Shown here in pieces: positions 1,839 to 57,174 of a stretch of DNA of 64,000 nt (position 1 is its first letter; each line of letters begins with the position of its first letter). The notes under the pieces are model-generated. The model saw only the letters and a program-made list of their open reading frames with translations. It was not told the DNA's origin and searched no databases. Position numbers and translations under genes: made by a program. The stretch comes from Candidatus Cloacimonadales bacterium (GTDB taxonomy: Bacteria > Cloacimonadota > Cloacimonadia > Cloacimonadales > JAIOQZ01). The stretch lies in NCBI GenBank assembly GCA_963665815.1, contig OY762463.1, positions 1,824,001 through 1,888,000 on the forward strand. The letters are read 5' to 3'.

Positions 1839-1840
1839 GA

Positions 1841-2419: not shown

Positions 2420-2442
2420 GCCAAACTCCTGTTACATTGTTA

Positions 2443-3450: not shown

Positions 3451-3464
3451 TTATCCTCCATTTA

Positions 3465-4595: not shown

Positions 4596-4604
4596 AAGAC
4601 CGCC

Positions 4605-6008: not shown

Positions 6009-6019
6009 AATAGATTCCG

Positions 6020-7314: not shown

Positions 7315-7324
7315 TTATGCTCCT

Positions 7325-8044
7325 TTAATATGCGCCCTTTCCTGTTATGACCGCAGGAATAGTATTGAGAAGAATTTTGAGATCTTCCCAGAGGCTCTGA
7401 CTCTTTATGTATTTTTTATCCAGTTCGACCTGTTGATCAAATGGAATTTCGCTTCTTCCGCTTACCTGCCAGATGCAGGTGATTCCAGGTTTAACATGAA
7501 GTCTTTTTCTGTCTTCAAGAGAATATTCGGCAACTTCTCTCGGGATTGGAGGTCTTGGACCAACAAGACTCATGTCACCAATAAACACATTGTACAATTG
7601 AGGTAACTCATCAATACTGAATCGTCTGATAACTCGACCGACTTTTGTAATTCTGGGATCCTTCTTCATCTTGAAGATGACACCTGCTTGAGATTCATTC
7701 TGATTAAGTAATTTGTCTTTAAACTTATCCGCATTCATTATCATAGACCTGAACTTATAAAAATCAAAGTGTTTACCATTGAGTCCAACTCTCTTCTGTG
7801 TGTAAAATACAGGACCCGGATCCTCTAGTTTTATCAAAATTGCAGTAATGAAGAATACCGGAGACAAAACAACCATTCCCAAAACTGACAGAACAACATC
7901 AATCAATCTCTTCAATCCATAAGAAAACTTGATTGTCAGTTCCCAGAGTATCAGTTTTCTGAGATGTCTTGTTTTTCTTTCTTCAATATTGCTGTCATCA
8001 AGCTGATTAATTATTTTCCGACGAAAATCTTTATCTACTGCCAT
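7325..8044 (-). CDS. Priming phosphoglycosyltransferase (sugar transferase, WcaJ/WbaP/PglC family)
   Basis: KRLID, KFRSM, DPRITKVGR, DELPQLYNVFIGDMSLVGPRP, KPGITCIWQVSGRS. Confidence 0.95.
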   Translation of the reverse strand: MAVDKDFRRKIINQLDDSNIEERKTRHLRKLILWELTIKFSYGLKRLIDVVLSVLGMVVLSPVFFITAILIKLEDPGPVFYTQKRVGLNGKHFDFYKFRSMIMNADKFKDKLLNQNESQAGVIFKMKKDPRITKVGRVIRRFSIDELPQLYNVFIGDMSLVGPRPPIPREVAEYSLEDRKRLHVKPGITCIWQVSGRSEIPFDQQVELDKKYIKSQSLWEDLKILLNTIPAVITGKGAY

Positions 8045-9371: not shown

Positions 9372-9383
9372 TCGTCAAACCTG

Positions 9384-11644: not shown

Positions 11645-11934
11645 AATCTTTTTTCTCTACAGTTTACACTGTCATCAATGCTGATAATCAGTGCGTTGTT
11701 AATATTCTGCTGTTTCATTGTAATCAACAGTTCCGTATCATGGATAGGACATGCCCTGATCTTATTATATATTAAAACAATCAGTTCATCATCAACTGAA
11801 AAACACAATGAGTTATTTATTGGTCTCAGTTCCCTGATTCCATTTTCACAAATCCCTGAAAAGCAATCAATCCTGAGCTCTTCAGTATTTGTGCTCGAAA
11901 TTACATTGAGAATCTTTTTCTTATACTTTTCCAT
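11641..11934 (-). CDS. Hypothetical protein (97 aa)
   Basis: ORF fills the gap in the operon exactly (6-bp gap upstream, ATGA overlap downstream); no recognised motif. Confidence 0.7.
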   Translation of the reverse strand: MEKYKKKILNVISSTNTEELRIDCFSGICENGIRELRPINNSLCFSVDDELIVLIYNKIRACPIHDTELLITMKQQNINNALIISIDDSVNCREKRL

Positions 11935-11940
11935 GAAATT

Positions 11941-14280
11941 TTACTTCATCATTACTTTTTCATAAACATCTTCATATAAACCAATTAAATATTTATATGT
12001 ATATTTCTGTCTCACAAGCTTTTCACCTTCTGCTGCAAGGGCAGAGAGTTTATCTCTGTCAGTATATGCTTTGAGCATTTTCTCCGAACACATTTCAACA
12101 TTCTCAGAATCAAAAAGATATCCGTTTTTACCTTCAACAACAAGGTTGGGATCAACGACATTGCTTTGAATAACCGGAGTTCCACTAATCCAGCTTTCAA
12201 CAACAACAGCACCCGAATTCATGAACCTGACAGGAATAACATGAACATCTGAATACCTGAGCCAGCTCAACACTTCCCAGCGATCAACCATTCCGGTGAA
12301 AATCACGCGTTCATCCAGATTATGCTCACCGACAAGCCTTTTCATCTCTTCAAAAAGTTGAGGTTCATAGTCTGCTCTTCCTACGAAAACATACATTGAA
12401 TCCGGAATCTCGTTCGCAATTTTTATAAAGGCTTTAAGTCCTATCATCTGTCCCTTGATCTCTGATACCCGTCCCAGAGAAAGGAAGACAAATTTATCAT
12501 CATTAATTTTTTTAATCTTTCTTATGTTATCTACTTCAACCTCATATTCATTCAAAAGAATAGGTACAGGCGAATAAGACACATTTGGATTAAACTGTTT
12601 GAAAAATCTGATTTCTTTATCTGCAATTGCGAATATGTGATCATACCCGTGCAGAAACATTTTTTCTCTGTGTTTTATATTATAAGAGCTCAAAACATCC
12701 GGATTAATTTTACCTGTTTCTTTTATTATACCTGCATAATCAAGAAAATCGAAAGAACAGAGAATTACTGGCATATTGAACAGCTTTCCTATGATAAATG
12801 CCAGCATATTGTTATAGCTTATTGCCGGGAAGCACTGGATTACATCATAACGTTCATTAATCAGATGCCAGATGATTGTCGGGCAAAGAGTTTTTGTTTT
12901 GATATTTGGCAATTTCACAAACGGATTGAACAGATCATATAACCTTTTTACAATAAATCCGTTTTCAATCTCAGTCTTTTCTCTGTCTATTCTATGAGGA
13001 CAGATTACTGTTACTTCGTTATTCTTTGCCAGTTCTATTGCCTGATAGTGGATATTTGTTTCAGCTCCGCCGACTTCCGGATAAAATCTGTTTGTCAGTA
13101 TTGCTATTTTTTTTCTTGTTTTTACGGTTTTCAAAAACTCAATAAAAGATTTTCCTACATTATCTGAAAAATAGAGCTTCATCGTTTTTGCATAAAGTCT
13201 TTGTCCAATCTCAGAAAGCTTCTCCGGTTCTGCATGAAGCCTTTTAATTTCTTCACACATTTTCTCTGCAGAATCCCGAATTACTACTTCAGACTCATCA
13301 AGTTCCAGCCCTTCAATACCAATTGTAGTCGTTAAAACTGCTTTTTTCAGCATACCGGCTTCAAGAATTCGTGTTCTTGTTCCGGAAGCAACCCGTAATG
13401 GCAAAAGCACTGATAATGCATTATGAATCTCTGACTCAATATCATCAACTTCACCAATAATATCAATATTATCATAGTCCTTATAATCGGAATAAAGTTT
13501 TGATTCCTCTTTACCAACAATCCTGATCCGTATATCATTTTCAATCAGCCATTCCTTCAGGGCAGGATACATGTTATTCACAAAATTCATAAAAGCATCT
13601 TCATTAGCGGCAGAACTCAATGTACCAAAGAACAAGATGTATTTTTCATTATTCAAAGAAAATGTATCTCTGTCAACACGGCCAATTGCATTTGGCAGAA
13701 TTTGATAATGCAGTTCAGGACGTTTCGCATAGTCCAAAACCATATCTCTTTCAACCGAATTAGAAAAAAAGAAATAATATGGTCTTGAGAAGAATTTCTT
13801 CTCGAAAGCTTTTAACTTAAGATACTCTATGAAGAAATATCTGTTTTTAAGAGTTTTACATTTATTCCATGAAAGCTCAGCAATTCTTGAAAAAAGCATG
13901 TCCACATCAATGATGATTTTTGAGTTTGGAGATATATATTCAGCTATCCTTGCCAGCTTTGCCATTGAGCTGAATCGAAATACAATCAGATCGTATTTAC
14001 TGGATTGCAGTATGCGCTTCCATTTTCGAATCTGCTCATTAGTAAATTTATATACCGCTGTAGTTTCCCATAAGTTCGTATCCATTTGTGTACCCATGGA
14101 ATAACAGTTTTCATAGCCGCTATGTTTATGTACTTTAGAGAAAATGTATCTCCATGATCTGACGAGAAACAAATCACAGTCATATTCCTTATTGAGAGTA
14201 TTCCATAAGAATCTGCTACGGTTTTTATCTCCACCTTTTTCATTGGCAAACGGAGTATCTACATAAAGCACTTTCTTCAT
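11941..14280 (-). CDS. Two-domain (tandem) family 4 glycosyltransferase
   Basis: First GT-B: PLRVASGTRTRILEAG..TTIGIEG; second: YPEVGGAE, LGRVSEIKG, SGAVVVESWISGTPVI. Confidence 0.9.
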   Translation of the reverse strand: MKKVLYVDTPFANEKGGDKNRSRFLWNTLNKEYDCDLFLVRSWRYIFSKVHKHSGYENCYSMGTQMDTNLWETTAVYKFTNEQIRKWKRILQSSKYDLIVFRFSSMAKLARIAEYISPNSKIIIDVDMLFSRIAELSWNKCKTLKNRYFFIEYLKLKAFEKKFFSRPYYFFFSNSVERDMVLDYAKRPELHYQILPNAIGRVDRDTFSLNNEKYILFFGTLSSAANEDAFMNFVNNMYPALKEWLIENDIRIRIVGKEESKLYSDYKDYDNIDIIGEVDDIESEIHNALSVLLPLRVASGTRTRILEAGMLKKAVLTTTIGIEGLELDESEVVIRDSAEKMCEEIKRLHAEPEKLSEIGQRLYAKTMKLYFSDNVGKSFIEFLKTVKTRKKIAILTNRFYPEVGGAETNIHYQAIELAKNNEVTVICPHRIDREKTEIENGFIVKRLYDLFNPFVKLPNIKTKTLCPTIIWHLINERYDVIQCFPAISYNNMLAFIIGKLFNMPVILCSFDFLDYAGIIKETGKINPDVLSSYNIKHREKMFLHGYDHIFAIADKEIRFFKQFNPNVSYSPVPILLNEYEVEVDNIRKIKKINDDKFVFLSLGRVSEIKGQMIGLKAFIKIANEIPDSMYVFVGRADYEPQLFEEMKRLVGEHNLDERVIFTGMVDRWEVLSWLRYSDVHVIPVRFMNSGAVVVESWISGTPVIQSNVVDPNLVVEGKNGYLFDSENVEMCSEKMLKAYTDRDKLSALAAEGEKLVRQKYTYKYLIGLYEDVYEKVMMK

Positions 14281-15122
14281 CGCTTAATTCCTTTGGAATA
14301 ATCACTTATACCTCTATTCACAGCATATTTCTGAACGAGTCTGTAAATAAAAGACTGACATATTAAATGATATTCATTTCGTTTTGCAATCCAGATAACA
14401 TCTCTCAAAAACTCCATAATGAATGGTTTCAGGAAAAATCTGATCAAAGACGGTTTGAATCCATATATTTTACCTTCTGCCACACCTTCCCCATGGAATC
14501 TTTTATATACCTGTGGAATAGTGTAATTATGAGAATGTTCTACAATTGCTTCCGGGACATACACAAGAGTATATCCTTTGTTTTTCATTCTGTAAGACCA
14601 CTCTATATCTTCGGAGTACTGTATGTCAGGATCAAAGGGATGTTCCTGAATCATAGATTTTTTGACTGCACTGGTTGCAAGTGAAAAGAAATGATGCCAG
14701 TTCTTAGATTCTCTTCCGTCTCCAAATGCTCTCACCATGTCTTTTATCACAAGAGAATGAGCGTCAGGTCTATAAATCTGATTTCCGAATACAGCCGCAA
14801 CTTTTGCATTTAAAAGAGGCTTTATAAGGTTTTTCAACCAGTTTCTGTCCTGCGGAATGCAATCAGAATTGTTAAACACAATAATATCACCATTCGCTCT
14901 GGCAACAGCTTCATTTAATACTCTGCCCGGAATATAGTCTGACGATTTTATCTGATATGCATTATCTGCATTATACTTCCGAATTACTTCCCAGGTACCA
15001 TCTCTGGATCCTGAATCAACATTGAGAATCTCAAACTCATCATAATCCTGTTCCAGCAGCATTTTCATTGTTGTTTCAATATATTCAATATCGTTAAACG
15101 ATCTTACAATAATTGTTACCAT
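14277..15122 (-). CDS. Glycosyltransferase family 2 (rhamnosyltransferase-like)
   Basis: IIVRSFN, VDSGSRDGT, NNSDC, SEDIEW, VEHSHNY. Confidence 0.9.
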   Translation of the reverse strand: MVTIIVRSFNDIEYIETTMKMLLEQDYDEFEILNVDSGSRDGTWEVIRKYNADNAYQIKSSDYIPGRVLNEAVARANGDIIVFNNSDCIPQDRNWLKNLIKPLLNAKVAAVFGNQIYRPDAHSLVIKDMVRAFGDGRESKNWHHFFSLATSAVKKSMIQEHPFDPDIQYSEDIEWSYRMKNKGYTLVYVPEAIVEHSHNYTIPQVYKRFHGEGVAEGKIYGFKPSLIRFFLKPFIMEFLRDVIWIAKRNEYHLICQSFIYRLVQKYAVNRGISDYSKGIKR

Positions 15123-31054: not shown

Positions 31055-33073
31055 TTAGATTAATCCCCATCTCTTTCTCAAATATAGTTCAAGACAGAAA
31101 GCAGATAAAAATGTAAGAAGAAAATACAAGTTATTATATAGACTTATTTCCTTTATTTCTTTGTTTGAAATTGAGAAAGAATCTGTCAGTTTCATATCAG
31201 CAGGATTACTGAATACACTTCCTCCAGTGATGTTTGCCAGATATTTAAGCAGATTAGAATTTACTCCACTATCCATCGCTTCAGAAGACACATCTGCAAC
31301 AACTATCTTACCGGATTTCTCTCTCTTTGATTTCTGATCAACAACCCTGTAACTATATTCTCCTGCCATATCCAGGTCTGCAATGTACTCAAATTCTCCA
31401 TTAGCTGATGTCCTGAAAAAATCTCTTGCTGTTAATTTACCATCCTTACTGAGAAAAATCTCTGCACTGACATCATTTACTTTCTCCATACTTTCATTAT
31501 ATGCAGTAAGAGTTATCCTTGCATTATCTCCCTTAAAGTAAACATCCTTGTCCATATCAATGTTAATCAAATCATTTTCATTTAATCCGGTCCATTTGAT
31601 ACAGCCAATGATAAACTCCTTGTATCCATCCGGATCGTCACTATGCATACTCCATTTCCAGATATCCTGTACAGCAAACTGAATAATGCGACTTCCTGAA
31701 TATGATCCTGAGATAATAGCCGGAGAGTTTTCACCATCATCAAAAACCGCAAGAGCCTTTTTAGCTGCATCAGGCTTCAAATGGATTTTTTTAAATGGAG
31801 GTAACTGGTTCTGAATAGTCTCGAGAGCATCAAATATCCTAATTTTCCTACCTGATCTGCTGACTTTAATCTGATCCGAAAGGTTATCAGGGAATCCATC
31901 ATATTCTTGAGTAAGAATTTCGTTTAAACCGCAATCAGGATCTCCAATGAAGATTAATCCCTTATTCCTTTTCAGGAAAGTAATTATTTTCCTGCTGTTC
32001 TCAGCAGAGATCTTCATTTTTCCATGGTTTACAATAATTAGTGTACTAATATTATCAATAAGTTCATTATCAAGAGTTATCCGACTATTTCCTGAATAAA
32101 AGTTGCCCGATTTGCTCAATAGAAACCTGAAATCCAGATGTTCATCCGTTAAAACAGCATTCTTAATAAAACGAAGATCATTATCAGGATAATCAGCCAG
32201 GCACAAAATTGTTTTTTTGCTATCCAGAATGTTTATTGACGCATATTTCCTGTTATTATCCGGATTTACATCTCTCAGAGTATCAGAAATATTCTCACCG
32301 AAAGCAACCATGGCTGATATTTTATGTTTACCTTTTCTCAATCCGCCAATATTTATCTCATGAGTAAAATCTGTAGATAAAAATTTGTACTTCTTCGTTA
32401 CTTTACTAGAACCATCAATAAATATTTCTATGTTATATGGTCCCTCATACTCATTCAATCTTCCGGATATACTGATTATCTGATCTTCATTCTCAAAACC
32501 TTTTTTGTTTGAGATAACTGATGTAAGGCTCAGATCATTTACGTCAGTTTTGATTTCAGGGATACACACCGAAACAGGGATATTCAATTTCTCGATACTT
32601 GAAAAATCATTATCGTGAAACCAGCCGTCTGAAACCAATACAATTTCCTGAATAAGTTCATGATTGTATATCTTCAATAGCTTCCGAACGGAAGAGATTA
32701 ATTTCGAATCTGTCGTTCTGATAGAATCGTTATGATTTCTAAGATTTTCTGCAAAATCAAATGTCTGAGTTTTTTTGCTGAATTGTTTATTCAGAGCATC
32801 AGAGAAATCCTTGAAAACAGCCTTTTTAGAACCATTTGCAAGAGTCTCATTCATACTGTCTGACACATCATTCAGAACAATCACTTTGCTTCCTGACGTG
32901 GATGTATTTTCCAGAGTCAGAACAGGATTGAATAAAAGAATAAACACAAAACTGATTGCTATTGCACGCAATGCAGCCAGAAGAATTCTTCTCTTGAAAT
33001 CAAGTTCCGGCTTTGTCCTTCTGTAGTATATATATGATATTACAATACTTAATAATATTACAAAGATTACCAT
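31055..33073 (-). CDS. Membrane-anchored vWA-like domain protein
   Basis: N-terminal TMs (LLAALR..LLFNP), LNDVSDSM MIDAS-like, LVSDG, C-terminal TM with LRKRWGL. Confidence 0.75.
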   Translation of the reverse strand: MVIFVILLSIVISYIYYRRTKPELDFKRRILLAALRAIAISFVFILLFNPVLTLENTSTSGSKVIVLNDVSDSMNETLANGSKKAVFKDFSDALNKQFSKKTQTFDFAENLRNHNDSIRTTDSKLISSVRKLLKIYNHELIQEIVLVSDGWFHDNDFSSIEKLNIPVSVCIPEIKTDVNDLSLTSVISNKKGFENEDQIISISGRLNEYEGPYNIEIFIDGSSKVTKKYKFLSTDFTHEINIGGLRKGKHKISAMVAFGENISDTLRDVNPDNNRKYASINILDSKKTILCLADYPDNDLRFIKNAVLTDEHLDFRFLLSKSGNFYSGNSRITLDNELIDNISTLIIVNHGKMKISAENSRKIITFLKRNKGLIFIGDPDCGLNEILTQEYDGFPDNLSDQIKVSRSGRKIRIFDALETIQNQLPPFKKIHLKPDAAKKALAVFDDGENSPAIISGSYSGSRIIQFAVQDIWKWSMHSDDPDGYKEFIIGCIKWTGLNENDLINIDMDKDVYFKGDNARITLTAYNESMEKVNDVSAEIFLSKDGKLTARDFFRTSANGEFEYIADLDMAGEYSYRVVDQKSKREKSGKIVVADVSSEAMDSGVNSNLLKYLANITGGSVFSNPADMKLTDSFSISNKEIKEISLYNNLYFLLTFLSAFCLELYLRKRWGLI

Positions 33074-34353
33074 TAAAATAACAGTCTAAGACTTAATGCA
33101 GTCTCTACTCCTTTTGAATAATTACCTGGGAAAAGAAAATCATAAGATGTAACAGAGAAATCAATTTCTAATCTGTTACTTCTGTATCCTGAAGAATATG
33201 TGAAAGCATAAGCCGTTGTTTCATCTCCATTACTAAGCCCTAATCTTAATGGTACTCTATCCTTAACTATGTATTCACCTGCTATTGAAATTTGAGGTTT
33301 TGCACAAGTTGATACCGTTGTTTTTGTGCTTTGTTTCCAGTCAAAGGATACGTTAGAGCTTTCATTTATTTTATATAGACTTCCAAATTTAAACACTAAT
33401 GGAAGAGTTGTTGTCCAGCCTTCGGAATCCTCAGTAACATTATCACTTTCTATTACATCATCATCGAGTTCCTCAATATAAACACTGTCTGCATTGGCAG
33501 TAATGTAATTTCTTTCTGCACTTCCACTCCAGTTGATGAATCCAAATACATTATCAAAGGCAAGCCCAACTGATAAGTTGTCCATGATATCATCCGATGA
33601 AAAGCCTATTGAACTTTTAAGACCAAAACCACCAGCAGCTTTATCGAGCTCAATATTCTGATCAAGATGAAGTCCACCATCTCCGGCAATCAACTCAGCA
33701 TCGAACTTATGTGTCCTCATACTCATTAAACCGATCAATGCACTAACTGATACTCCAACCTTAACTTCCGGAATTTTGTAGTTACTTTCAGGGTTCTCAA
33801 TGAAAGGTAATACGTTTTTAAGGTAAAGACCGGAGTAAGCATATGTGACATCCGTATAACCAAGCACAGATACTCCATTTTCACTTTTATCAAAAGTATA
33901 TACTCTATTGTATTCATTTCCATTCAATAACAAATCAAAATATTTTTTCGAAAACTTCCCTTTGGCATAAAAGTTCGTACCAATGGAAAAACCATGGTTT
34001 CTTGATGAAGTGGCAAAAAGTAGTGTTGATATCTTAAACTTAAGTTTTACTGCATCTTCAAGCTCACCCAGAATATCTTTTTTATCGCTTTCTGTCAGAT
34101 ATTTGCCGACGTTATCATTGTACAAGTTAATAGAAAAAGAGTTGTTGAGTATTCCTCCACTGAAGCACATAAAGCTGTAATCCCGATTAAAATCCCTGTC
34201 ATTGGCAAGATTAGCCGGATTCCAGTATATTGCATTCACTCCATTTGCTCTCTGAAGAAAGCTCTCTCCGTACATTGCAGAAGCAGGTACATCTGTAGCA
34301 GATATAAGACTGACAATTGATAAAAGTGCTGTAAAAATTAGTAATTTTCTCAT
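33073..34353 (-). CDS. Outer-membrane beta-barrel protein (FadL/PorV/DUF5723-like)
   Basis: Signal peptide, AIYWNPANL motif, alternating beta strands, terminal Phe; ATG 34353 with GAGG RBS. Confidence 0.7.
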   Translation of the reverse strand: MRKLLIFTALLSIVSLISATDVPASAMYGESFLQRANGVNAIYWNPANLANDRDFNRDYSFMCFSGGILNNSFSINLYNDNVGKYLTESDKKDILGELEDAVKLKFKISTLLFATSSRNHGFSIGTNFYAKGKFSKKYFDLLLNGNEYNRVYTFDKSENGVSVLGYTDVTYAYSGLYLKNVLPFIENPESNYKIPEVKVGVSVSALIGLMSMRTHKFDAELIAGDGGLHLDQNIELDKAAGGFGLKSSIGFSSDDIMDNLSVGLAFDNVFGFINWSGSAERNYITANADSVYIEELDDDVIESDNVTEDSEGWTTTLPLVFKFGSLYKINESSNVSFDWKQSTKTTVSTCAKPQISIAGEYIVKDRVPLRLGLSNGDETTAYAFTYSSGYRSNRLEIDFSVTSYDFLFPGNYSKGVETALSLRLLF

Positions 34354-34360
34354 CAATACC

Positions 34361-35896
34361 TCACTGCTTAATATGTAGTTTTGCATCAAGATGCACTTTT
34401 ACGTTTATGTTATCATCAGGATTTATTATCACTTCTCCATCCGTACTCTTCATGTGAAGTCTCAAACCTATAAATATCTCATCATTCAGGAAGGTGTTTC
34501 TTATTTCATCATTATCCAAAAAAATAAATAATGAATCTGTAGACATTGCATTCACATGTGTATTCTCTAAAGGTCCGGGAATCTTAAGAATCGGATTATG
34601 GAAAATCTCAGTTGTATCATTAATACCGGAAAAATACAAACTTACTCCGGCACTGACAGGAAATGAATTATCAAGAATGATAGAAACTCCACCGCTCTTA
34701 ACATATTCCTCTATATCGGCTCTGTTATCTTGTGAAATGGTTTGCGAAAATGTTGTATCAGGTGTAATGGTATTTTCCAATAATGTAAAAATGAAAGGGG
34801 CTTCACCTGTAAAGCTACCTGAAACTCCGCATCCTGCTCTTGCAAAACCATTTATTCCCTCATCTCCCCCAATAACATAACTGGCTTCAGTAAGCTCAAA
34901 TCTATCCGGGAAGATATTTGCAAGATAACCAACCGAATCAGTTAAAGCTATAGTCGATTCACTTGGATGTTCAAAACTGGACGCAGCATCAAAAACTACA
35001 TCATCAGCATCAGTAATTCTTATAAATCGAGTTCTCCCAGTTTCAGTATTAATTGCTGTTAATTTCCCTCGAAACTTAACTTGAAATCCCAGCTCATTAA
35101 CAGTATGAATAAATAATTTTGCACCATCAGGAGCAATTCTGACAGTATTCTCAATATTGTCAGGATAGTTAATATCATTATCCTTCGCATAATCATCAAT
35201 ATTGAAAACCTGATTATAGAAAGTTCCTTTCATTTCTTCAAAATATATATCTTCATCAAACGACAGTCTTATCATATCACCAATAACAGGAGTATCATAA
35301 GAGGATGTCATAATAACACTCAAAGAATCGAGTAATCCTGTGTTATTGATGTCTCCAATAGTATAGTATTCATTCGGAGAAACATATGATAAATCAATTT
35401 CGCTATGTCCAAAATTCTGAGATGTATATGTCTTTTCCAGTACATTACCGTCCTGATCTTTTACTTCTGGAAATTGCAGAACAACAGTCTGAAGATTTCC
35501 GGTATTATGCTGAATATCAACATCCAGAGTCCATTGAGAGATAAGTCCGTATGAAACCCTTAAATAGCTGGTTGAAGATTCTTCAAGTATGTTTAAAGCT
35601 CCCTTCAATGTTGTATCCGGAATAATTGTAACGTAAGGATAAGAATTGATATTATTAGCCTTAATATGTATCGAGTCATCAATGGATTCACTTCTCAGAT
35701 CCCCCTCGTATTGCACAAATAGAGAATCGTTTCTAATAACAAAGTCTGTTGAGTCTTCAATCTCATGCATATAATATGTCTTGTTCAGTAAGGGCAAATC
35801 AAAGTTAACATCCCATTCTGGTGCCTCGAACTCTTTAACGCAGCCGCAAAGGATTGTTAAAATCAAAATAATACCCGCAATACAGATATTCTTCAT
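34361..35896 (-). CDS. Hypothetical acidic beta-rich lipoprotein
   Basis: LCGC lipobox then P.WDVNFDLPL. Confidence 0.75.
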   Translation of the reverse strand: MKNICIAGIILILTILCGCVKEFEAPEWDVNFDLPLLNKTYYMHEIEDSTDFVIRNDSLFVQYEGDLRSESIDDSIHIKANNINSYPYVTIIPDTTLKGALNILEESSTSYLRVSYGLISQWTLDVDIQHNTGNLQTVVLQFPEVKDQDGNVLEKTYTSQNFGHSEIDLSYVSPNEYYTIGDINNTGLLDSLSVIMTSSYDTPVIGDMIRLSFDEDIYFEEMKGTFYNQVFNIDDYAKDNDINYPDNIENTVRIAPDGAKLFIHTVNELGFQVKFRGKLTAINTETGRTRFIRITDADDVVFDAASSFEHPSESTIALTDSVGYLANIFPDRFELTEASYVIGGDEGINGFARAGCGVSGSFTGEAPFIFTLLENTITPDTTFSQTISQDNRADIEEYVKSGGVSIILDNSFPVSAGVSLYFSGINDTTEIFHNPILKIPGPLENTHVNAMSTDSLFIFLDNDEIRNTFLNDEIFIGLRLHMKSTDGEVIINPDDNINVKVHLDAKLHIKQ

Positions 35897-39077: not shown

Positions 39078-39311
39078 CTATCCTAATTTTCCTTTAAGAT
39101 AATCAATAGCGTTGCCAACTGTTCTGAGCTTTTCAGCTTCTTCATCAGGAATTTCAATATCAAATTCTTCTTCGAATTTCATGATTAATTCAACAGTATC
39201 TAAAGAGTCTGCGCCAAGATCTTCGATGAAATTCGCTTCATTAGTGATTTCACTTTCATTAACGTCTAATTCCTGTACTATTATTTCTTTTACTTTAGCA
39301 GCGATATCCAT
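39078..39311 (-). CDS. acpP: Acyl carrier protein
   Basis: [14 protein letters not shown]. Confidence 0.98.
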
Positions 39312-47738: not shown

Positions 47739-48200
47739 ATGATAAAACAAATAAGTGTAATAGGACAAAGTGGAATTATAGATGAAGATTTACAGAAGGC
47801 TGCCTTCAGAATAGGTAAAGCAATCGCAGAAAACGAAAAGATACTGATCTGTGGAGGAAGAGACGGAGTAATGGAACAGGCCTGCAAGGGTGTTCATTCA
47901 GTTGGAGGAACTTCTGTGGGGATAATGATGGGATACGATAAAGAAGAAGCAAACGAGTTTGTTGATATTGTAATACCTACCGGATTGAATCAGGCGAGAA
48001 ATACTTGTGTTGTCTCGTCAGGAGATCTCGTAATTGCTATTGGTGGTTCTTATGGCACACTCAGTGAAATAGCTCTGGCGAAATCAATGGGAAAACGAGT
48101 AATTGGCTATAATACCTGGTCAGGCAAGGGTCATGTTTCCGATCTGGAAATAGAAAATAAATCAGTTGACGAAATATGCAGGATATTAGCAGACTGTTAA
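47739..48200 (+). CDS. LOG/TIGR00725 family protein
   Basis: CGGRDGVME, TGLNQARN, GGSYGTLSEI. Confidence 0.9.
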   Translation: MIKQISVIGQSGIIDEDLQKAAFRIGKAIAENEKILICGGRDGVMEQACKGVHSVGGTSVGIMMGYDKEEANEFVDIVIPTGLNQARNTCVVSSGDLVIAIGGSYGTLSEIALAKSMGKRVIGYNTWSGKGHVSDLEIENKSVDEICRILADC

Positions 48201-48326
48201 CAGATTTCAGAAATAGTTGTAATTTAGCAACATATGGATTTTCTAATTTTTTTAATAAAAAAAACATTGACATCAAAGTCGGGTTTTTCGAATGTGTTCA
48301 CCTGTAGATTAAATATGGAGATTTAA

Positions 48327-48692
48327 ATGATCATAGCATTATCAATATTGTTCGTTATAATATGTGTTGCAACTGTACTCATAATACTTTCGCAATCCAG
48401 CAAAGGTGCCGGAATGGAAGGTTTACTTGGTGGTGCTGCATCTAACGTGTTTGGTTCACAAGGTGGATCAGACGTTTTGAAAAAAGCAACAAAAGGTCTC
48501 GTTGCTGCATTCTTCATTGTCTCCCTGTTTATCGGCTGGTACATCAACGGTCATTCAAAGCAGACCAAAGTTAATAGTCCTGCTCTTGATAAATATCGTC
48601 AAAAAATGATGAAACAAAAACCGGCAGCTACTCAGGAAGATCTTCAGGAAATGGAAGTTACTCCTACAGAAACAAAAGATACTGATAAGTAA
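48327..48692 (+). CDS. secG: Preprotein translocase subunit SecG
   Basis: Two TMs with ILSQSSKGAG..GG...FGSQG..LKKAT linker; followed by tRNA-Leu. Confidence 0.92.
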   Translation: MIIALSILFVIICVATVLIILSQSSKGAGMEGLLGGAASNVFGSQGGSDVLKKATKGLVAAFFIVSLFIGWYINGHSKQTKVNSPALDKYRQKMMKQKPAATQEDLQEMEVTPTETKDTDK

Positions 48693-48709
48693 AAAGTACA
48701 TAAGTGATT

Positions 48710-48797
48710 GCAGAAGTGGTGGAATTGGCAGACACGCAAGACTAAGGATCTTGTGCCCAATGCGGGTGTGCGGGTTCGAGTCCCGCCTTCTGCACCA
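48710..48797 (+). tRNA. tRNA-Leu, anticodon AAG (48744-48746)
   Basis: Acceptor GCAGAAG/CTTCTGC-ACCA; anticodon stem CAAGA/TCTTG with loop CT-AAG-GA; long variable arm; GCGGG-TTCGAGT-CCCGC T arm. Confidence 0.95.
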
Positions 48798-48807
48798 AAT
48801 ATAAACT

Positions 48808-48840
48808 AAGACTGTTGAATTTTCAACAGTCTTTTTTATT
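48808..48840. terminator. Terminator between the tRNA and the convergent oxidoreductase
   Basis: AAGACTGTTGAA-TT-TTCAACAGTCTT followed by TTTTATT. Confidence 0.8.
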
Positions 48841-50717
48841 TATTCAAACTCTTTCAGTGACTGATGTATCCCTTTATGTATCTCATACCAGAAATCGAGT
48901 GCAGATTCGTATTGTTCACGTTTAAACTTTTCAGCCCAGTCCAGCAATCCCTTTTCTGTAGATTTATCTACTTCAATCTTTCTTTTCAGGAAAGTTCTCA
49001 CATAATCAATATTTCTCTGCGATTCCCAGAAGATTCCCGAGTTTCTGCTATTGATACGTGATGCAGTGAGTTTTAAACTGGTCTGGAACTCTTCTCTTAA
49101 GTCATACAGCTTTTCAATAAACTCAGGTAACATCTCTTCTGCCCAACCTCTGTGAAAACGACAAACGCCCATGTTATCCATCACCAGCTCTCCCTGAAAA
49201 CGCTCTGCTGAAAGTTCACCCAAATCTCTGGGTAAGAAGAATTCATTACCATAATACATGTAGTACTTACCCATTATTGCCATTGGAGAAAGCACTCCCG
49301 GAGTCCAGTATTGATTCGGCACCATCCAACCTTTTCTTGCGAAGGCAACATATACAAACTTATCTATTATTGCTTTTCCTTTCTTACGAGATATTCTTCT
49401 GCCGAATTTTCTTGCTCCTTCTGAAAGATCTAACAAGCCACGTTTACCCACAATAGAATCAAGCAGTTCAATAGCAATATCAGCATTATGGTGTGAATCT
49501 TTAACAACATCAAAACCCTCAGGCTCAAAAACAGGCATGTTGGAAATTCCAACCTCATCCATTGTCAGCAGTCCTTCAGATACACAATCCATTAACCAGG
49601 CGAGTACTCCACCCACAGATATAGAATCAAAACCCAGCATGTCTGCATAGTGCACAACTTTTTCCGCAGCTCGTTGATCAAAAATACCGCATAAAGGTCC
49701 CATCGTCTGGTATGGTTCATAGTCTTTCTTATATTTGTTGTTCATTTTTTTACAGAGAGCAGCACAAGGTTCTCCACAGTTTTTCTGTTGCCTAGTTTCA
49801 ATAGTTTCCTCGTTAAACTGTTTCAAATAATGATCCAACACAAGCTCCTTGTGCAGCTTAAGGCGTTTTTCCTCAGTCCAGTAAATACTTTTATAGTTGA
49901 AAGCCAGTATCCTACCGCCTATGCCTGCATAGTTTACTCCGAATGTTCCACCGGTCTTAAATTTCGGATCAAATCTGTATTTGGTGGTGACTTCAAAATC
50001 CTTAACAGCCAGTATCTGATCATACTTGTTCTTAAACCATTTATCAGCTACTTTTCTATCCCTGAAATCTTCTTCAATATGAGTTCCTCCATAAATAATC
50101 GACGTTATACCGTGTTCTCGAAAAAGCTTAGACCCGAATCCACCTCGACCTGCCCAGGTATCTACATGACTAAGCTCTCCATTCCTGTATGGAGCAGAAC
50201 ATATACCACCAAAGTCAGTGGTTACGGCTGAAGGTCCACATGCCAGGACACGAGGGTCGGATTCATATTCTCCGGTATGATTAACCAAAACATTATTCAT
50301 CAGCTCATAAACACCCTTTTCTCCAGTATTCCAGATTCTCTTAATATCCTGTGGAATAATCTCCACCTGGATTTCTTCCCCATGTGCTCTGCGTAGTTTG
50401 AGTAAAGATGGACTTGATGTCTTGCCGACAATCGACAGAATGTTTATCCCTAAATTGTTGAATTCCAAACCGGCTCCTCCCATGGAAGAGATATAAAATC
50501 CTCCCCAACAAGGTGAAAACCCCGTAAAGATGAGTCTGTTTGATCCAGGCAAAATTGAACCAGCAAATATTCCTGTTCCAATATTCAAACTGTTGTAACG
50601 TCCCGAAAGAAACAATCCAAGATCAACCGGTCCGAAGAAATCACCTAATTTATATCTGTCTATCCGGTAAAAAGACGTATTTACATTAATTGTTAAAACT
50701 TTCAATGCTGTTTCCAT
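48840..50717 (-). CDS. Tungsten/molybdopterin aldehyde:ferredoxin oxidoreductase family, GAPOR-like
   Basis: SSMGGAG, WAGRGGFGS, TGGTFGVNY, CGEPCAALCKK, DYEPY, DMLGFDSI, DNMGVCRFHRGWAE. Confidence 0.85.
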   Translation of the reverse strand: METALKVLTINVNTSFYRIDRYKLGDFFGPVDLGLFLSGRYNSLNIGTGIFAGSILPGSNRLIFTGFSPCWGGFYISSMGGAGLEFNNLGINILSIVGKTSSPSLLKLRRAHGEEIQVEIIPQDIKRIWNTGEKGVYELMNNVLVNHTGEYESDPRVLACGPSAVTTDFGGICSAPYRNGELSHVDTWAGRGGFGSKLFREHGITSIIYGGTHIEEDFRDRKVADKWFKNKYDQILAVKDFEVTTKYRFDPKFKTGGTFGVNYAGIGGRILAFNYKSIYWTEEKRLKLHKELVLDHYLKQFNEETIETRQQKNCGEPCAALCKKMNNKYKKDYEPYQTMGPLCGIFDQRAAEKVVHYADMLGFDSISVGGVLAWLMDCVSEGLLTMDEVGISNMPVFEPEGFDVVKDSHHNADIAIELLDSIVGKRGLLDLSEGARKFGRRISRKKGKAIIDKFVYVAFARKGWMVPNQYWTPGVLSPMAIMGKYYMYYGNEFFLPRDLGELSAERFQGELVMDNMGVCRFHRGWAEEMLPEFIEKLYDLREEFQTSLKLTASRINSRNSGIFWESQRNIDYVRTFLKRKIEVDKSTEKGLLDWAEKFKREQYESALDFWYEIHKGIHQSLKEFE

Positions 50718-52105: not shown

Positions 52106-52327
52106 ATTTCTCCAACTTCGATACCATCTAAATTTACTATTTAAGGAAGGCAAGATATTTCTGTTAATTACAAATCTTTTCAGAATTGTGAAGTGAAAGA
52201 TTTATACTGTCCGATAGTATCTATAAATGTTCGTTTACGTACACTTTTTGAATAATATTCATATTCTTTTTATTCTTTTTTTTCAATACTTTAGATATAT
52301 TTAATGATTTTGCTTCATTTCTCTAAG

Positions 52328-52344
52328 TTGGAACTTTTTTTGCT
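52328..52344 (+). promoter_or_regulatory. Putative sigma-54 promoter
   Basis: TTGGAACTTTTTTTGCT = GG-N10-GC, ~30 bp before ATG 52376. Confidence 0.7.
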
Positions 52345-52375
52345 TATATTTCTGTTAAATATCAGAGGAGGATAT

Positions 52376-55339
52376 ATGAAACATTCAATATTTATGCTTT
52401 TTCTTTTTGTAAGTCTCAGTATCTGGGGAATAATTAGTGTTCCGACAGATTACTCAACTATTCAGGGAGCAATAAATGCTTCTGTCAATGGTGATACTAT
52501 TATTGTAGATCAGGGAGTATACACTGAGAACATCAACTTCTCAGGCAAAGAAATCTTATTGACTTCGCAGATAATTAGCACCAATAATTATTCAGATGTT
52601 CAACTTACAGTACTTAATGGAGTCAATGGAGGAGTTGTAGTAGAGTTCACGAGTAATGAAACAAGCCTTTCAAAACTTAATGGATTCACTGTGAGAATGG
52701 GATCAGGAACTATGAACAATAACAGAGGGGGAGGAATATTAATCGAAAATGCGAGTCCCGAAATATCAAACTGCATTGTGAAAGATAATTCTGCATTCAA
52801 TGGTGGAGGAGCATTCATATCAAACTCATCTGCAAGATTCTATAATTGTGTTTTCAAAGATAATAACGCAATGCTTGAAGGCGGGGCAGCCATTGTTGTA
52901 AGTTCGGTTGACACACGATTCTATAATTGTCTGTTTATTGACAATGGAGCATGGGCAGAAACTGCTACTCTTGATGTCTGGTTCTCTGGAACGACGGAAA
53001 TAGTAAACAGTATTGTAAGAAACTCAAATGCTAATCATATTACAGAAAGTGGTAACGCCGTTCTGAATATCTCATATTCAAATATTGAAGGTGGATGGGT
53101 TGGGACAGGCAACATTGACGCTGATCCCCAGTTCGAGGATATTCAGAATGAACTTTTCAGCGTAACACCTTCATCACCATGTATAAATACCGGAGATCCT
53201 AATTCTTTGAATTATAATTTACCGATCTATGATTTAATGGGAAACCAACGTTTCAATGGTATAATTGACATGGGACCATGCGAACTTGAATCAGGAACAC
53301 TCGCGGCAGCCTTCAATGTAGCCCCGGACTCAGGATATGCACCTCTTACCGTAAATTTTTTAGATTTCAGCACAGGAAATCCAACTGCATGGGATTGGGA
53401 TTTTGACAATGATGGCACGACTGACAGCAATTTGCAGAATCCTCAACATACATACACTCAACCTGGTGTCTATACAGTTTCATTGACAATAAGCGATGGA
53501 ACTAATCAAAGCTCAGTAACAATGCAGGACTTAATAATTGTGTCTGAACCAAATGTAACTGCAGATTTTCAGGCAGACATTCTGATAGGAAATGCACCCC
53601 TAATTGTTTCTTTCACGGATTTATCTTCAGATGACTGCACTCTATGGGAATGGGATTTCGATAATGATGGAACTGTAGATAATATTGCGCAAAATCCGGT
53701 CTGGTCCTTTACAGAACCAGGAACATATACCGTGTCCTTAACAGCTTCGAACGGTTTAACAGATGATACAGAAGTAAAAACTGACTACATTGTTGTAAAT
53801 CCCTCGATTGGAGCAATGTACACTGTCCCGGATGACTATATTCACATAGATATGGCTATTGCTATGTGTAGTGATGGAGACACAATATATGTAAGACCCG
53901 GAACCTACGATGAATACATAGATTTCAGAGGCAAAGCATTAAGTGTTGTCAGTGAATATTTTTTTTCGGGTAATCCTGACCATATAGAGCAGACTGTTAT
54001 AGATGGAGGAAATTCAGGAAGACCTGTAATTTTCCAATCCGGTGAAAACTGGAACTCAAAACTTATAGGGTTTACAATCACCGGAGGAAATGCCTCTCTT
54101 GCTGAAGGTGGAGGTGTATACTGCAACGGAGCCTCCCCAACTCTTTCCAACCTGAGAATAACTAATTGTTCAGCCAGTGAAGGCGGTGCTATTGCCTGCT
54201 ATAACTCAACCGCAATAATTGCATCCTGTGAGGTATTCCTGAATAGTTCTTCAACTTCAGGTGGTGGTATCCTTGTTCATTCAAACTCAGATGTAAGGAT
54301 AGAGAACTGCCTAGTTTACGATAATAGCTCATTGATTGGCGGAGGTATTGCTTGCCAGCTAAGTAACTGTAAAATCGTTAATTGTACCGTAACGCTGAAT
54401 AACTCAACTAACAGCAATTTTGCCGGAGGAATAGACTGCTATGGCACTTCGGATGTGATTATACTGAACTCTATCATACATAGCAACTCATCTCCTCAAA
54501 TAGTAAACTCTCAAAATTTGTGGCTTAATAATTCTAACATAATGGATCCTGTTCAAAACGATACTGGGGCACTGCTGATAGAACAAGACAATATAAACTC
54601 AGATCCCGATTTTGTTAACTCCGATCAAAACGACTTCACACTGAATACATCATCTCCTTGTATTGATCTGGGAATTACAAGTATCGTTGTTAATGGTGAA
54701 TCTATTTCCGCTCCACAAAAAGATATTCGCAGCAACGACAGAGATACATCACCAGATGCAGGATGTTATGAAGTTCTTCCCGCTTTGAATGCTGAATTCT
54801 CAGCAAATCCCGTTTCAGGATCAGCACCTCTTCTTGTGACATTCACAGATTTGAGTTACCCCCAACCATCTTCATGGGAATGGGACTTTGATAATGATGG
54901 GATAACTGACTCAAACATACAAAATCCCCAATTCACTTATAATCAGAATGGGATATATTCAGTGAAGCTGATTGTACAAAATGGTACTGAAACCGATTCA
55001 ATTGTATACTCAAATCTGATAAATGTTCAGGAAGCAGCAAACATTGAGGATATAAACTCATTCAACACGGCTTTGCTTGGAAACAGCCCAAATCCATTTA
55101 ATCCGGAAACAAAAATTTCCTTCAGTCTGGAAAGACAACAGTATGTATCTCTTGAAATAGTTAACATAAAGGGTCAAAAAGTTACAATATTGTACTCAGG
55201 AATACTTGATCGCGGAAAACATGAATATATCTGGAATGGTGAAAACAACAACGGAGTAAAAACATCTTCAGGTGTTTACTTCATAAAAATGAAAACAAGT
55301 AAAAATACTTTTGTCCGTAAATGTATTATGCTCAAATAA
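52376..55339 (+). CDS. Secreted multidomain protein: beta-helix-PKD-PKD-beta-helix-PKD-FlgD-Ig/T9SS-A-like C-terminus
   Basis: Signal peptide; VPTDYSTIQGAI, GGG/GGA repeats; PKD W.WDFDNDG x3; GNSPNPFNPET..SGVYF..RKCIMLK; GAGGAGG RBS. Confidence 0.9.
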   Translation: MKHSIFMLFLFVSLSIWGIISVPTDYSTIQGAINASVNGDTIIVDQGVYTENINFSGKEILLTSQIISTNNYSDVQLTVLNGVNGGVVVEFTSNETSLSKLNGFTVRMGSGTMNNNRGGGILIENASPEISNCIVKDNSAFNGGGAFISNSSARFYNCVFKDNNAMLEGGAAIVVSSVDTRFYNCLFIDNGAWAETATLDVWFSGTTEIVNSIVRNSNANHITESGNAVLNISYSNIEGGWVGTGNIDADPQFEDIQNELFSVTPSSPCINTGDPNSLNYNLPIYDLMGNQRFNGIIDMGPCELESGTLAAAFNVAPDSGYAPLTVNFLDFSTGNPTAWDWDFDNDGTTDSNLQNPQHTYTQPGVYTVSLTISDGTNQSSVTMQDLIIVSEPNVTADFQADILIGNAPLIVSFTDLSSDDCTLWEWDFDNDGTVDNIAQNPVWSFTEPGTYTVSLTASNGLTDDTEVKTDYIVVNPSIGAMYTVPDDYIHIDMAIAMCSDGDTIYVRPGTYDEYIDFRGKALSVVSEYFFSGNPDHIEQTVIDGGNSGRPVIFQSGENWNSKLIGFTITGGNASLAEGGGVYCNGASPTLSNLRITNCSASEGGAIACYNSTAIIASCEVFLNSSSTSGGGILVHSNSDVRIENCLVYDNSSLIGGGIACQLSNCKIVNCTVTLNNSTNSNFAGGIDCYGTSDVIILNSIIHSNSSPQIVNSQNLWLNNSNIMDPVQNDTGALLIEQDNINSDPDFVNSDQNDFTLNTSSPCIDLGITSIVVNGESISAPQKDIRSNDRDTSPDAGCYEVLPALNAEFSANPVSGSAPLLVTFTDLSYPQPSSWEWDFDNDGITDSNIQNPQFTYNQNGIYSVKLIVQNGTETDSIVYSNLINVQEAANIEDINSFNTALLGNSPNPFNPETKISFSLERQQYVSLEIVNIKGQKVTILYSGILDRGKHEYIWNGENNNGVKTSSGVYFIKMKTSKNTFVRKCIMLK

Positions 55340-55356
55340 TAACTCTTTTCACATAT

Positions 55357-55387
55357 TCAGGCACTCAGTACAATCCTGAGTGCCTGA
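55357..55387 (+). terminator. 12-bp perfect hairpin after the 52376-55339 gene
   Basis: TCAGGCACTCAG-TACAATC-CTGAGTGCCTGA. Confidence 0.65.
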
Positions 55388-55532
55388 GTTACTTATTGTT
55401 AACTACTATTCGGTATACTTTAATTGATGATATGAACCACATTCACGATACCACCACCCGTCCAGATAAATCATCTCATACACTCCTTAAATACTTGTTA
55501 TAAATACATTTATGATACATTTTGTTTCCCTT

Positions 55533-55549
55533 CTGGAACAAATATTGCA
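55533..55549 (+). promoter_or_regulatory. Putative sigma-54 promoter
   Basis: CTGGAACAAATATTGCA = GG-N10-GC, ~35 bp before ATG 55585. Confidence 0.75.
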
Positions 55550-55584
55550 TCATCTGAGATATCAATATTAAGGAGGAAGGCTAA

Positions 55585-57174
55585 ATGAAAAAATTCTTAA
55601 TTTTCATTACTCTCTTTATATCAGCAGGATTATTTTCTACTACCATCAATATCCCTGCTGATTACACAACTATTCAGGACGGTATTAATGCATCATCTGA
55701 TGGAGACACTGTCCGCGTAGCTCCTGGAACATACACGGAGCAAATTGATTTTTCAGGAAAGAACATTACTGTCGCAAGTGAATATGCTTTTGATTACGAT
55801 CTGACACATATTGATCAGACAATCATTGATGCAAACTGGGGCGGAAGAGTCGTAACATTTAACAATGGAGAAACGAACACAACATTGCTGATTGGATTCA
55901 CCATTCAAAACGGGGATACTCAAACTAATGGGGGTGGCATTCTTTGTGACGGAGCCTCTCCAAAGCTTATGAATTTAGTTGTAAAAGACTGTGCGGGAAA
56001 CCATGGCGGAGGTATCTCCCTGGAAAACTCTAATTCAGAGCTGCTCAACATTAAACTGACAATGAATTATTCAACCAGTGATGGTGCTGTGATTTACGTT
56101 GGCAACAACTCAGATGTATCTTTGAAGAACATTCTGGCATACAGTAATGATGGCAGCGGAGCACCGGGAATTGCATTTGATAATTCAACAGGTTCTGTTA
56201 TAAATTCCACAATAACCGGTAACTTTGTAATGTTTGGCAGCGGTGCCGGAGGTGTAAATTGTTCCGGATCATCGGATGTTGTTATCTTCAATTCTATTAT
56301 CTATGGTAACTCCTCACCACAAATAGTAAATTCCCAGAACTTATGGGTGCACTATTCATGTTATGAAGGTTCAATTACCAACAACACCGGAGCAACTCTT
56401 GATGAATCAAATACAATCACATCAGATCCTGCATTTTTTGATCCAAACAACTCTGATTATCATCTCACTCAAAATTCTCCGTGCGTTGATGCAGGTATAA
56501 GACAAACTTTCATCAACAACACAAATATCAGAGCTACTGCATCAGATATTGAGAACGTTCCTCGATCAATGATGTCCTTTTCTGAATACGATTATGGAGC
56601 GTATGAGTATTCTGCTCAGTTAACCGCCGGTTTTGTTGCGAATCCGACTTCCGGTGACGCACCATTGACAGTTGTCTTTACTGATCAATCTTTACCAGTT
56701 CCAACTTCTCATGACTGGGACTTTGAAAATGACGGAATCATTGATCACCATTTCCCGAATCCAACACATGTATATGAAATTCCGGGAGTATATGATGTAA
56801 AACTTGTTGTCAGAAATGGAACACAAGTCGATTCGATTCTGCTGGATAACTTTATTACTGTAAACGGCATCAGTAATGATGAAAATGTGAACTCAGTAAA
56901 AACAGATCTTACAGGAAATTATCCTAATCCATTTAATCCATCTACAATGATTAACTTCAGTATTTCCAAAGATCAGAATGTTAAAATAGATATTCTGAAT
57001 ATAAAAGGTCAGTATGTCAGAACGATATGCAACAAAAACTTTTGTGCAGGAGAAAACTCCGTTGTATGGGACGGACTTGATGCCAGAGGTGAAGATACCG
57101 GTTCGGGAGTATATTTTATCAAAATGCGCACTCCTGATCAGTTTTTTATCAAAAAATGCACGTTAATTAAGTAA
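55585..57174 (+). CDS. Secreted beta-helix-PKD-FlgD-Ig/T9SS-A-like protein (paralog of the upstream gene)
   Basis: Signal peptide; IPADYTTIQDGI; HDWDFENDG PKD; GNYPNPFNPST..SGVYFIK..KKCTLIK. Confidence 0.9.
   Translation: MKKFLIFITLFISAGLFSTTINIPADYTTIQDGINASSDGDTVRVAPGTYTEQIDFSGKNITVASEYAFDYDLTHIDQTIIDANWGGRVVTFNNGETNTTLLIGFTIQNGDTQTNGGGILCDGASPKLMNLVVKDCAGNHGGGISLENSNSELLNIKLTMNYSTSDGAVIYVGNNSDVSLKNILAYSNDGSGAPGIAFDNSTGSVINSTITGNFVMFGSGAGGVNCSGSSDVVIFNSIIYGNSSPQIVNSQNLWVHYSCYEGSITNNTGATLDESNTITSDPAFFDPNNSDYHLTQNSPCVDAGIRQTFINNTNIRATASDIENVPRSMMSFSEYDYGAYEYSAQLTAGFVANPTSGDAPLTVVFTDQSLPVPTSHDWDFENDGIIDHHFPNPTHVYEIPGVYDVKLVVRNGTQVDSILLDNFITVNGISNDENVNSVKTDLTGNYPNPFNPSTMINFSISKDQNVKIDILNIKGQYVRTICNKNFCAGENSVVWDGLDARGEDTGSGVYFIKMRTPDQFFIKKCTLIK

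Follow-up and report, generated by a model that had tools for sequence, protein, structure and literature searches.

Wobble inosine in bacteria was long treated as confined to one tRNA only, namely tRNA-Arg(ACG). The locus described here raises the question of whether a leucine tRNA with an encoded A34 is read through inosine in a phylum distant from those in which this is known. Work from 2018 to 2026 extended wobble inosine to the tRNA-Leu(AAG) of Lactobacillales, with effects on codon usage, fitness and mRNA editing (PMC13249217, PMC11472039). Whether Leu(AAG) reaches beyond Lactobacillales was asked by Katanski et al. (2026, PMC13249217), where, as far as the text on this point goes, only Mycoplasma and Prochlorococcus are named from GtRNAdb. 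We analyzed a 64 kb stretch of DNA from a Candidatus Cloacimonadales genome (64,000 nucleotides, “the window”), which has a GC content of about 36% and carries housekeeping genes (fab cluster, lysS, recG, mazG).

The tRNA-Leu(AAG) Gene Downstream of secG

The sole tRNA found by ARAGORN in the window is a tRNA-Leu with the anticodon AAG, encoded directly downstream of secG on the same strand. The features of the locus are:

48327..48692, plus strand: secG, 121 aa (NCBIfam TIGR00810, E = 1.9e-16)
48710..48797, plus strand: tRNA-Leu(AAG), class II, with long variable arm, discriminator A and encoded CCA (ARAGORN, Rfam RF00005)
48744..48746, plus strand: anticodon AAG; A34 is base 48744, and the loop reads C32 U33 A34 A35 G36 G37 A38 (ARAGORN, sequence)
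48808..48833, plus strand: terminator-like hairpin with an 11-pair stem and a 4-nt loop, followed by a T run and starting 10 nt past the tRNA

The Rfam model RF00005 matches positions 48710–48794 with 56 bits (gathering score 29, E = 2.3e-09) and is covered completely (model positions 1–71 of 71). The acceptor stem has 7 bp (GCAGAAG/CTTCTGC), the anticodon stem is CAAGA/TCTTG with the loop CT-AAG-GA (CUAAGGA), the T-loop is the standard TTCGAGT, and the D stem has 3 bp, as seen in the sequence and in an alignment with five E. coli tRNA-Leu genes. The gene thereby shows what defines a class II tRNA-Leu, namely a cloverleaf scoring above the RF00005 threshold, a long variable arm, A73 and a 3′ CCA; A73 is a leucine identity element. 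The minimum free energy fold of the lone tRNA sequence is not a cloverleaf (z-score −1.59), which is usual for tRNAs folded as single sequences and is uninformative. Structural support was, therefore, taken from the covariance model and from an alignment of 45 homologs (see below), and the minimum free energy fold was set aside. The locus is a real, complete and well-formed tRNA-Leu gene; ARAGORN, the Rfam score and the sequence agree with the preliminary description of a complete, well-paired tRNA-Leu with this loop and an encoded CCA.

Between the secG stop codon and the start of the tRNA lie 17 nt. The region 48100–48950 contains three terminator-like sites, compared to 0.4 expected from shuffled sequences, and the hairpin behind the tRNA can also be read on the minus strand, following a convergent gene of the aldehyde:ferredoxin oxidoreductase (AOR) family. 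The tRNA is probably co-transcribed with secG, with the transcript ending at the hairpin 48808–48833. The AOR-family gene itself (48840–50717, minus strand) converges on the tRNA and shares this two-way hairpin; its product matches an archaeal GAPOR model with E = 7e-105, yet stays far under the cut-off of that model.

Further observations concern the remainder of the window. Two large proteins (1011 and 529 aa; 52304–57174, plus strand) carry T9SS C-terminal sorting and choice-of-anchor domains, and such sorting tails fit an organism of the FCB group. Three consecutive ORFs of 672, 438 and 511 aa (31055–35896, minus strand) lie beside a radical SAM gene and rnc and have no Pfam match at E ≤ 1e-5. 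A long same-strand run (3–15122, minus strand) encodes glycosyltransferases, sugar epimerases/dehydratases and sugar transferases. It also holds genes for an AMP-binding/carrier protein, a STAS protein and a SpoIIE-like phosphatase/kinase, and probably represents an exopolysaccharide cluster under regulation.

A34 in Related Genomes

Species-representative genomes were scanned with a 24-nt pattern covering the anticodon arm, with position 34 set to N, and 20 kb were read around each match. The scan gave at least 119 loci (numbered with the prefix L below), and its counts are minimum values, taken from a sample that is not random. That the anticodon arm is constant outside position 34 is imposed by the search pattern and, hence, uninformative in either direction. 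At least 120 matches were obtained in these loci; among the matches listed, 58 have A34 and 62 have T34, with neither G34 nor C34 present. The tRNA body of the window occurs in at least 46 loci, and A34 was found in 46 of 46 among the matches listed. The acceptor stems of these 46 are GCAGAAG (44 loci), GCAGAAA (one) and GCAGGAG (one). Labels of Cloacimonadota, Cloacimonetes, Cloacimonas or Tenebribacter are attached to 42 of the 46 listed related loci (Tenebribacter belongs to Cloacimonadota according to a taxonomy look-up), and to none of the 62 T34 loci listed is a Cloacimonadota label attached.

The closest of the matches listed, L017 (Cloacimonadales), is colinear with positions 38721–58750 of the window; the two stretches are 83% identical in nucleotides, and their tRNA sequences do not differ. 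Since this is the nearest, the species of the window differs from that of every match listed. For the alignment, the window tRNA was combined with 44 complete relatives (n = 45), and two genes truncated at contig ends were left out. Changes on both sides with pairing kept are seen in 5 of 26 predicted pairs; in the T stem, for instance, CG is replaced by GC in five sequences and GC by UA in two. All 45 aligned tRNAs have an encoded CCA. Among the matches listed, 44 of the 46 related loci have SecG encoded immediately upstream of the tRNA and on its strand (gap 0–49 nt, median 12 nt), and the two loci without it both begin at a contig edge, at the tRNA. A word-based search for SecG protein homologs gave only two, at 92% and 74% identity. 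Among the matches listed, the A34 carriers include five Cloacimonadales records titled “chromosome: 1”, namely OY759316.1, OY771587.1, OY762964.1, OY762940.1 and OZ223280.1.

These data bear on the alternative that the A at 48744 arose through faulty sequencing or assembly, or that this copy of the gene has no function. Apart from A34 being rare outside tRNA-Arg(ACG), nothing speaks for it. A34 is present in 46 of 46 listed relatives from independent assemblies, one of which is only 83% identical to the window, and the compensatory stem changes, the CCA end in 45 of 45, the preserved secG linkage and the terminator would all be odd for a dead copy. Taken together, the uniform A34 among the matches listed, the compensatory changes, CCA and secG linkage exclude a sequencing error or a decaying pseudogene, and we give this alternative practically no credit. 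Among the matches listed, A34 is a fixed trait of the sampled Cloacimonadota, and the tRNA is likely functional. The survey of sister genomes thus answers a doubt that the preliminary description had left standing, namely that base 48744 might be an error. For annotation, this means that a leucine tRNA with A34 in metagenome-assembled genomes of Cloacimonadota should not be treated as an error.

Relation to Leu(GAG) and the Direction of the Change at Position 34

In E. coli K-12, leuU, annotated as tRNA-Leu(GAG), lies 14 nt past secG, and in a blastn comparison with E. coli the window tRNA also matches this secG-linked gene best (75–76% over the full length). The statement in the preliminary description that the tRNA after secG is Leu(GAG) in E. 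coli is, hence, borne out. Both genes stand directly 3′ of secG on the same strand, both have a long variable arm, and their D arms are almost the same. Outside the anticodon arm, 56 of 71 positions of the window tRNA are identical in leuU, compared to 52 of 71 in leuQ(CAG) and 51 of 71 in leuW(UAG). The difference lies in the anticodon arm: leuU has G34 where the window has A34, and the two anticodon stems are unlike, so that the arms agree at 8 of 17 positions. Compared with a secG-linked gene of the leuU type, the position 3′ of secG is the same, but the anticodon is AAG instead of GAG, in the window as in 46 of 46 listed relatives. The secG position and the tRNA body together point to a leuU-type gene in which G34 changed to A34.

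An alternative derives the tRNA from Leu(UAG) by a change of U34 to A34, or lets it take over the role of Leu(UAG), so that a tRNA with the anticodon IAG would be the sole reader of CUU, CUC and CUA and Leu(CAG) would read CUG, as in the CGN box of arginine. The anticodon arm speaks for such an origin. It is nearer to that of E. coli leuW(UAG), with 12 of 17 positions identical, than to that of leuU, and the 24-nt arm stretch recurs unchanged in 62 Leu(UAG) genes from other phyla but, among the 120 matches listed, in no gene with GAG or CAG; these UAG genes come from Verrucomicrobiota, Planctomycetota, Meiothermus, Synergistaceae and others. Codon usage points the same way, as CTA/(CTA+CTG) is 0.16 in the window, where NNA/(NNA+NNG) averages 0.75 over other boxes, and the median log2 odds of CTA are −2.43 in Cloacimonadota versus −1.95 in the comparison loci (p = 0.012). 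However, many of the comparison lineages with Leu(UAG) make little use of CTA as well. Moreover, the gene sits at the position of the E. coli Leu(GAG) gene, leuU is the nearest match to its body, long variable arm included, once the anticodon arm is set aside, and SecG is directly upstream in none of the 23 T34 loci whose upstream ORF was tested. In the GtRNAdb genera covered by a recent preprint, A34 is described as having replaced only G34 isoacceptors (10.64898/2026.05.15.725136). On balance, we consider a U34 origin improbable.

A change of G34 to A34 is, thus, the better reading, though unproven, and the margin by which the tRNA body favors it is small. The switch from G34 proposed in the preliminary description stands as far as the secG position and the closeness of the body to leuU are concerned; against it are the arm, which is that of Leu(UAG) genes, and the absence of G34 from the 120 matches listed. 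Among these matches, the exact arm stretch occurs only with A34 or T34, never with G34 or C34, which suggests that, across many phyla, genes for Leu(AAG) and Leu(UAG) share an arm that is not used by GAG and CAG genes.

Separately, we observed near-identical Leu(UAG) genes with the acceptor strand GGGCGTA in four loci (L014, L019, L050, L098), whose bins bear the names Hallerella, Bacteroides uniformis, Lachnospiraceae and Bacillales. The GC content around three of the four is 35–36%. This suggests mislabelled or mis-binned contigs.

Leu(AAG) in Other Lineages

The scan also recovered Leu(AAG) genes with other bodies. A bin of Fibrobacter succinogenes (L046) has tpiA, secG and two tandem tRNA-Leu(AAG) genes (7003–7089 and 7139–7225) within positions 5845–7225. 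Its tRNA body is 61% identical to that of the window outside the anticodon arm, and the gene order indicates that A34 follows secG in a second FCB-group lineage too, though in another tRNA body. Six Clostridia genomes (L045, L049, L052, L066, L086, L117), among them a Christensenella bin and the cultured Pumilibacter intestinalis CLA-AA-M10, carry a Leu(AAG) family with the acceptor strand GCGGTCG that is not beside secG; the Fibrobacter genes have the same acceptor stem. Further Leu(AAG) genes, again with different bodies, are found in a Clostridia bin (L029), a Hydrogenedentes bin (L038), bin L048 and a bin labelled Deltaproteobacteria (L105). Six representatives (L029, L038, L046, L048, L066, L105) are 61–76% identical to the window tRNA outside the anticodon arm, which argues against a recent transfer of one gene. 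We considered whether the identical arms in distant A34 lineages reflect convergence on a TadA substrate and rejected this idea, as the identity is imposed by the search pattern.

Codon Usage and the State of A34

An encoded A34 might be deaminated to inosine or act unmodified, and the two cases differ in how well CUC would be read: in vivo, tRNAs with an unmodified A34 show strong discrimination against codons ending in C (PMC11066159). Leucine codons in the window are CTT (30%), CTG (25%), TTA (16%), TTG (15%), CTC (9%) and CTA (5%). The share CTC/(CTC+CTT) is 0.23 and equals the mean NNC share in the six other four-fold boxes. The preliminary description had counted two CTT and one CTC in acpP as a sign that these codons are in use, and the ORF at 39078–39311 (minus strand) indeed has two CTT, one CTC and four TTA. 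As an observation on its own, the leucine box is odd for 36% GC with its 25% CTG, 5% CTA and 16% TTA, though A-ending codons lead most of the other four-fold boxes of the window (33–48%); CCN is an exception with 21% A versus 26% G.

For a comparison between lineages, log2 odds of CTC versus CTT were taken relative to NNC versus NNT in the six other four-fold boxes. The median is −0.38 in 23 Cloacimonadota stretches, which span GC contents of 35–57%, compared to −0.87 in 42 T34 comparison loci (Mann-Whitney p = 0.049). In the GC-richer members L006, L009 and L013, CTC makes up 23–33% of the leucine codons, the highest value being that of L009 (33%). The combined share of CTT and CTC among leucine codons has a median of 0.33 in Cloacimonadota versus 0.36 in the comparison loci (p = 0.41). 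As CUC is not avoided in Cloacimonadota, the data argue indirectly for deamination of A34 to inosine, one of the two routes weighed in the preliminary description, over an unmodified A34; normal CUC usage fits I34 or a second reader of CUC, e.g., a Leu(GAG) tRNA encoded elsewhere in the genome.

Under the competing model, A34 stays unmodified and the tRNA reads mainly CUU, with CUC decoded poorly by A:C wobble or by another leucine tRNA, such as a UAG tRNA with modified U34 or a GAG copy. In its favor, E. coli TadA is highly specific for the arginine loop (PMC11472039, PMC11066159), CTT is the commonest leucine codon of the window, and some low-GC Cloacimonadota loci under-use CTC relative to other NNC codons (L036, 0.13 versus 0.34; L035, 0.19 versus 0.37). 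On the other hand, across the 23 stretches CTC is less avoided than in the 42 comparison loci, its share in the GC-richer members is high, and the discrimination against C-ending codons cited above is strong. The one bin that resembles this model is very unlike Cloacimonadota: in L029 (CALBOE010000006.1; Leu(AAG) gene at 9960–10045, minus strand; 37% GC), CUC is lost almost totally, with one CTC versus 92 CTT in eight long ORFs, compared to about 40% NNC in the other four-fold boxes. L029 looks like a case of unedited A34 or of a nearly unassigned codon. For Cloacimonadota, we regard an unmodified A34 as unlikely, although it deserves more weight than an origin from U34.

TadA and a Model for Decoding

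Genes for the enzyme itself were searched in the surroundings of the tRNA. No TadA-like ORF was found in the window and the 119 listed loci (ORFs ≥ 60 aa, compared with E. coli TadA in phmmer at a cut-off of E ≤ 0.01 and inspected for a deaminase motif), and no second leucine tRNA was present in the flanks of the Cloacimonadota-type loci within the 20 kb around each listed match. The anticodon loop CUAAGGA fits YUAMGRA, the consensus of S. pyogenes TadA (PMC11472039), and departs at positions 35 and 37 from YUACGAA, the motif of E. coli. TadA of S. pyogenes edits tRNA-Leu(AAG) in vivo and in vitro, and E. coli TadA left the S. pyogenes tRNA unedited in vitro (PMC11472039); an orthogonal AAG tRNA was edited to only about 15% by E. 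coli TadA in vivo (PMC11066159). Given this poor editing by the E. coli enzyme, an ordinary TadA may not suffice. In Streptococcus, Leu(IAG) was shown by tRNA-seq and a TadA assay (PMC13249217).

We propose the following course of events. In an ancestor of the sampled Cloacimonadota, A34 would have replaced G34, a change that may have been tolerated because leucyl-tRNA synthetase (LeuRS) does not use the anticodon (PMC11028032). The TadA of the organism would deaminate the transcript to I34, giving tRNA-Leu(IAG), which would read CUU and CUC well and CUA weakly, and CUG, perhaps also CUA, would be left to other leucine tRNAs. Altogether, we consider it likely that the gene after secG encodes a lineage-fixed, CUY-reading leucine tRNA in which A34 stands for G34 and is converted to I34 by TadA. 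Judging from loop and codon usage, the likeliest mechanism would be decoding through inosine that is made by a TadA of broadened specificity. More tentatively, a phylum-wide replacement of Leu(GAG) by an inosine-bearing Leu(IAG) can be envisaged, kept over GC contents of 35–57% and genomes of approximately 1.6–4.4 Mb; in its bolder form, Leu(UAG) would be missing and CUU, CUC and CUA would all depend on I34, as in the arginine box. We put this forward as a speculative extension, less probable than the model proper.

Comparison With Known A34 tRNAs

The nearest parallel is the Leu(AAG) of Lactobacillales (Streptococcus, Lactobacillus, Lactococcus, Oenococcus oeni), which is converted to Leu(IAG). 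In both cases, a class II tRNA-Leu has an encoded and lineage-fixed A34, and the window loop CUAAGGA agrees with the streptococcal TadA consensus named above. Leu(IAG) is described from three Lactobacillales families without Leu(GAG) (Katanski et al., 2026, PMC13249217), where it replaces the latter (PMC13249217, preprint 10.64898/2026.05.15.725136). The Leu(AAG) genes of GtRNAdb are almost all from Bacilli, with few in Mycoplasma and Prochlorococcus (PMC13249217). S. pyogenes and O. oeni were added as cases by Wulff et al. (2024, PMC11472039; review PMC8072771), and from 4047 bacteria in GtRNAdb, Lactobacillus, Lactococcus, Streptococcus, Leuconostoc and Mycoplasma are named (preprint 10.64898/2026.05.15.725136). 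As far as these texts go, they place Leu(AAG) mainly in Lactobacillales (PMC13249217, PMC11472039, preprint 10.64898/2026.05.15.725136), which matches the earlier assertion that bacterial A34 leucine tRNAs are mainly known from some Bacillota.

Several differences set the two apart. Lactobacillales are Bacillota, whereas Cloacimonadota belong to the FCB group. Genera with fixed A34 tRNAs in GtRNAdb are 60–70% AT (preprint 10.64898/2026.05.15.725136), in contrast to GC contents of 35–57% in Cloacimonadota. CUU and CUC are enriched in Lactobacillales (PMC13249217), but Cloacimonadota show no excess of CUU plus CUC. None of the 119 loci listed is from Lactobacillales, so their anticodon arm probably differs from the one used as search pattern.

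The canonical I34 tRNA of bacteria, tRNA-Arg(ACG), which becomes ICG, likewise has an encoded A34 and serves a four-codon box, presumably through the same TadA. It differs from the window tRNA, which has A35 instead of C35 and, in addition, G37; as described above, the Leu(AAG) of streptococci stayed unedited with E. coli TadA. Unmodified A34 tRNAs, i.e., tRNA-Thr(AGU) of Mycoplasma and the threonine and serine tRNAs of O. oeni, share the encoded A34 outside the arginine box. In contrast to Cloacimonadota, which use the C-ending CUC normally, they are found in reduced or very AT-rich genomes.

Significance of Leu(AAG) in Cloacimonadota

Leu(AAG) as a kind is known from Lactobacillales, and the phylum Cloacimonadota appears to be new for it. 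Of the papers listed for Cloacimonadota and anticodons, none deals with Leu(AAG). In the literature found on A34, TadA, inosine and Leu-AAG, neither Cloacimonadota nor Fibrobacter is named, although figures and supplements may list Cloacimonas or Fibrobacter. The strings “Cloacimon” and “Fibrobacter” do not occur in the main text of the preprint 10.64898/2026.05.15.725136; the same is true of “Bacteroid” in the main texts of this preprint and of PMC13249217, and of “Bacteroidetes” in PMC11472039. New with respect to the cases described are the range of GC contents over which A34 is kept and the lack of CUU/CUC enrichment.

The locus offers an answer, at the level of genes, to the question of whether Leu(AAG) reaches past Lactobacillales. 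In an uncultured FCB phylum, mostly from anaerobic digesters, Leu(AAG) is present in every sampled member among the matches listed, at the ancestral secG position and over a wide range of GC contents, which suggests that the distant phylum Cloacimonadota shares a way of decoding so far known mainly from lactic acid bacteria. The phylum, thus, provides an independent natural replicate for asking how TadA widens its substrate range, whether a wider TadA specificity diversifies mRNA editing and whether codon usage tracks the tRNA. If a phylum-wide Leu(IAG) is true, it would imply a TadA with dual specificity for arginine and leucine tRNAs that arose independently of Lactobacillales. Together with Leu(AAG) in the other lineages, this would make expanded I34 decoding a solution that recurs among bacteria, and no peculiarity of Bacilli.
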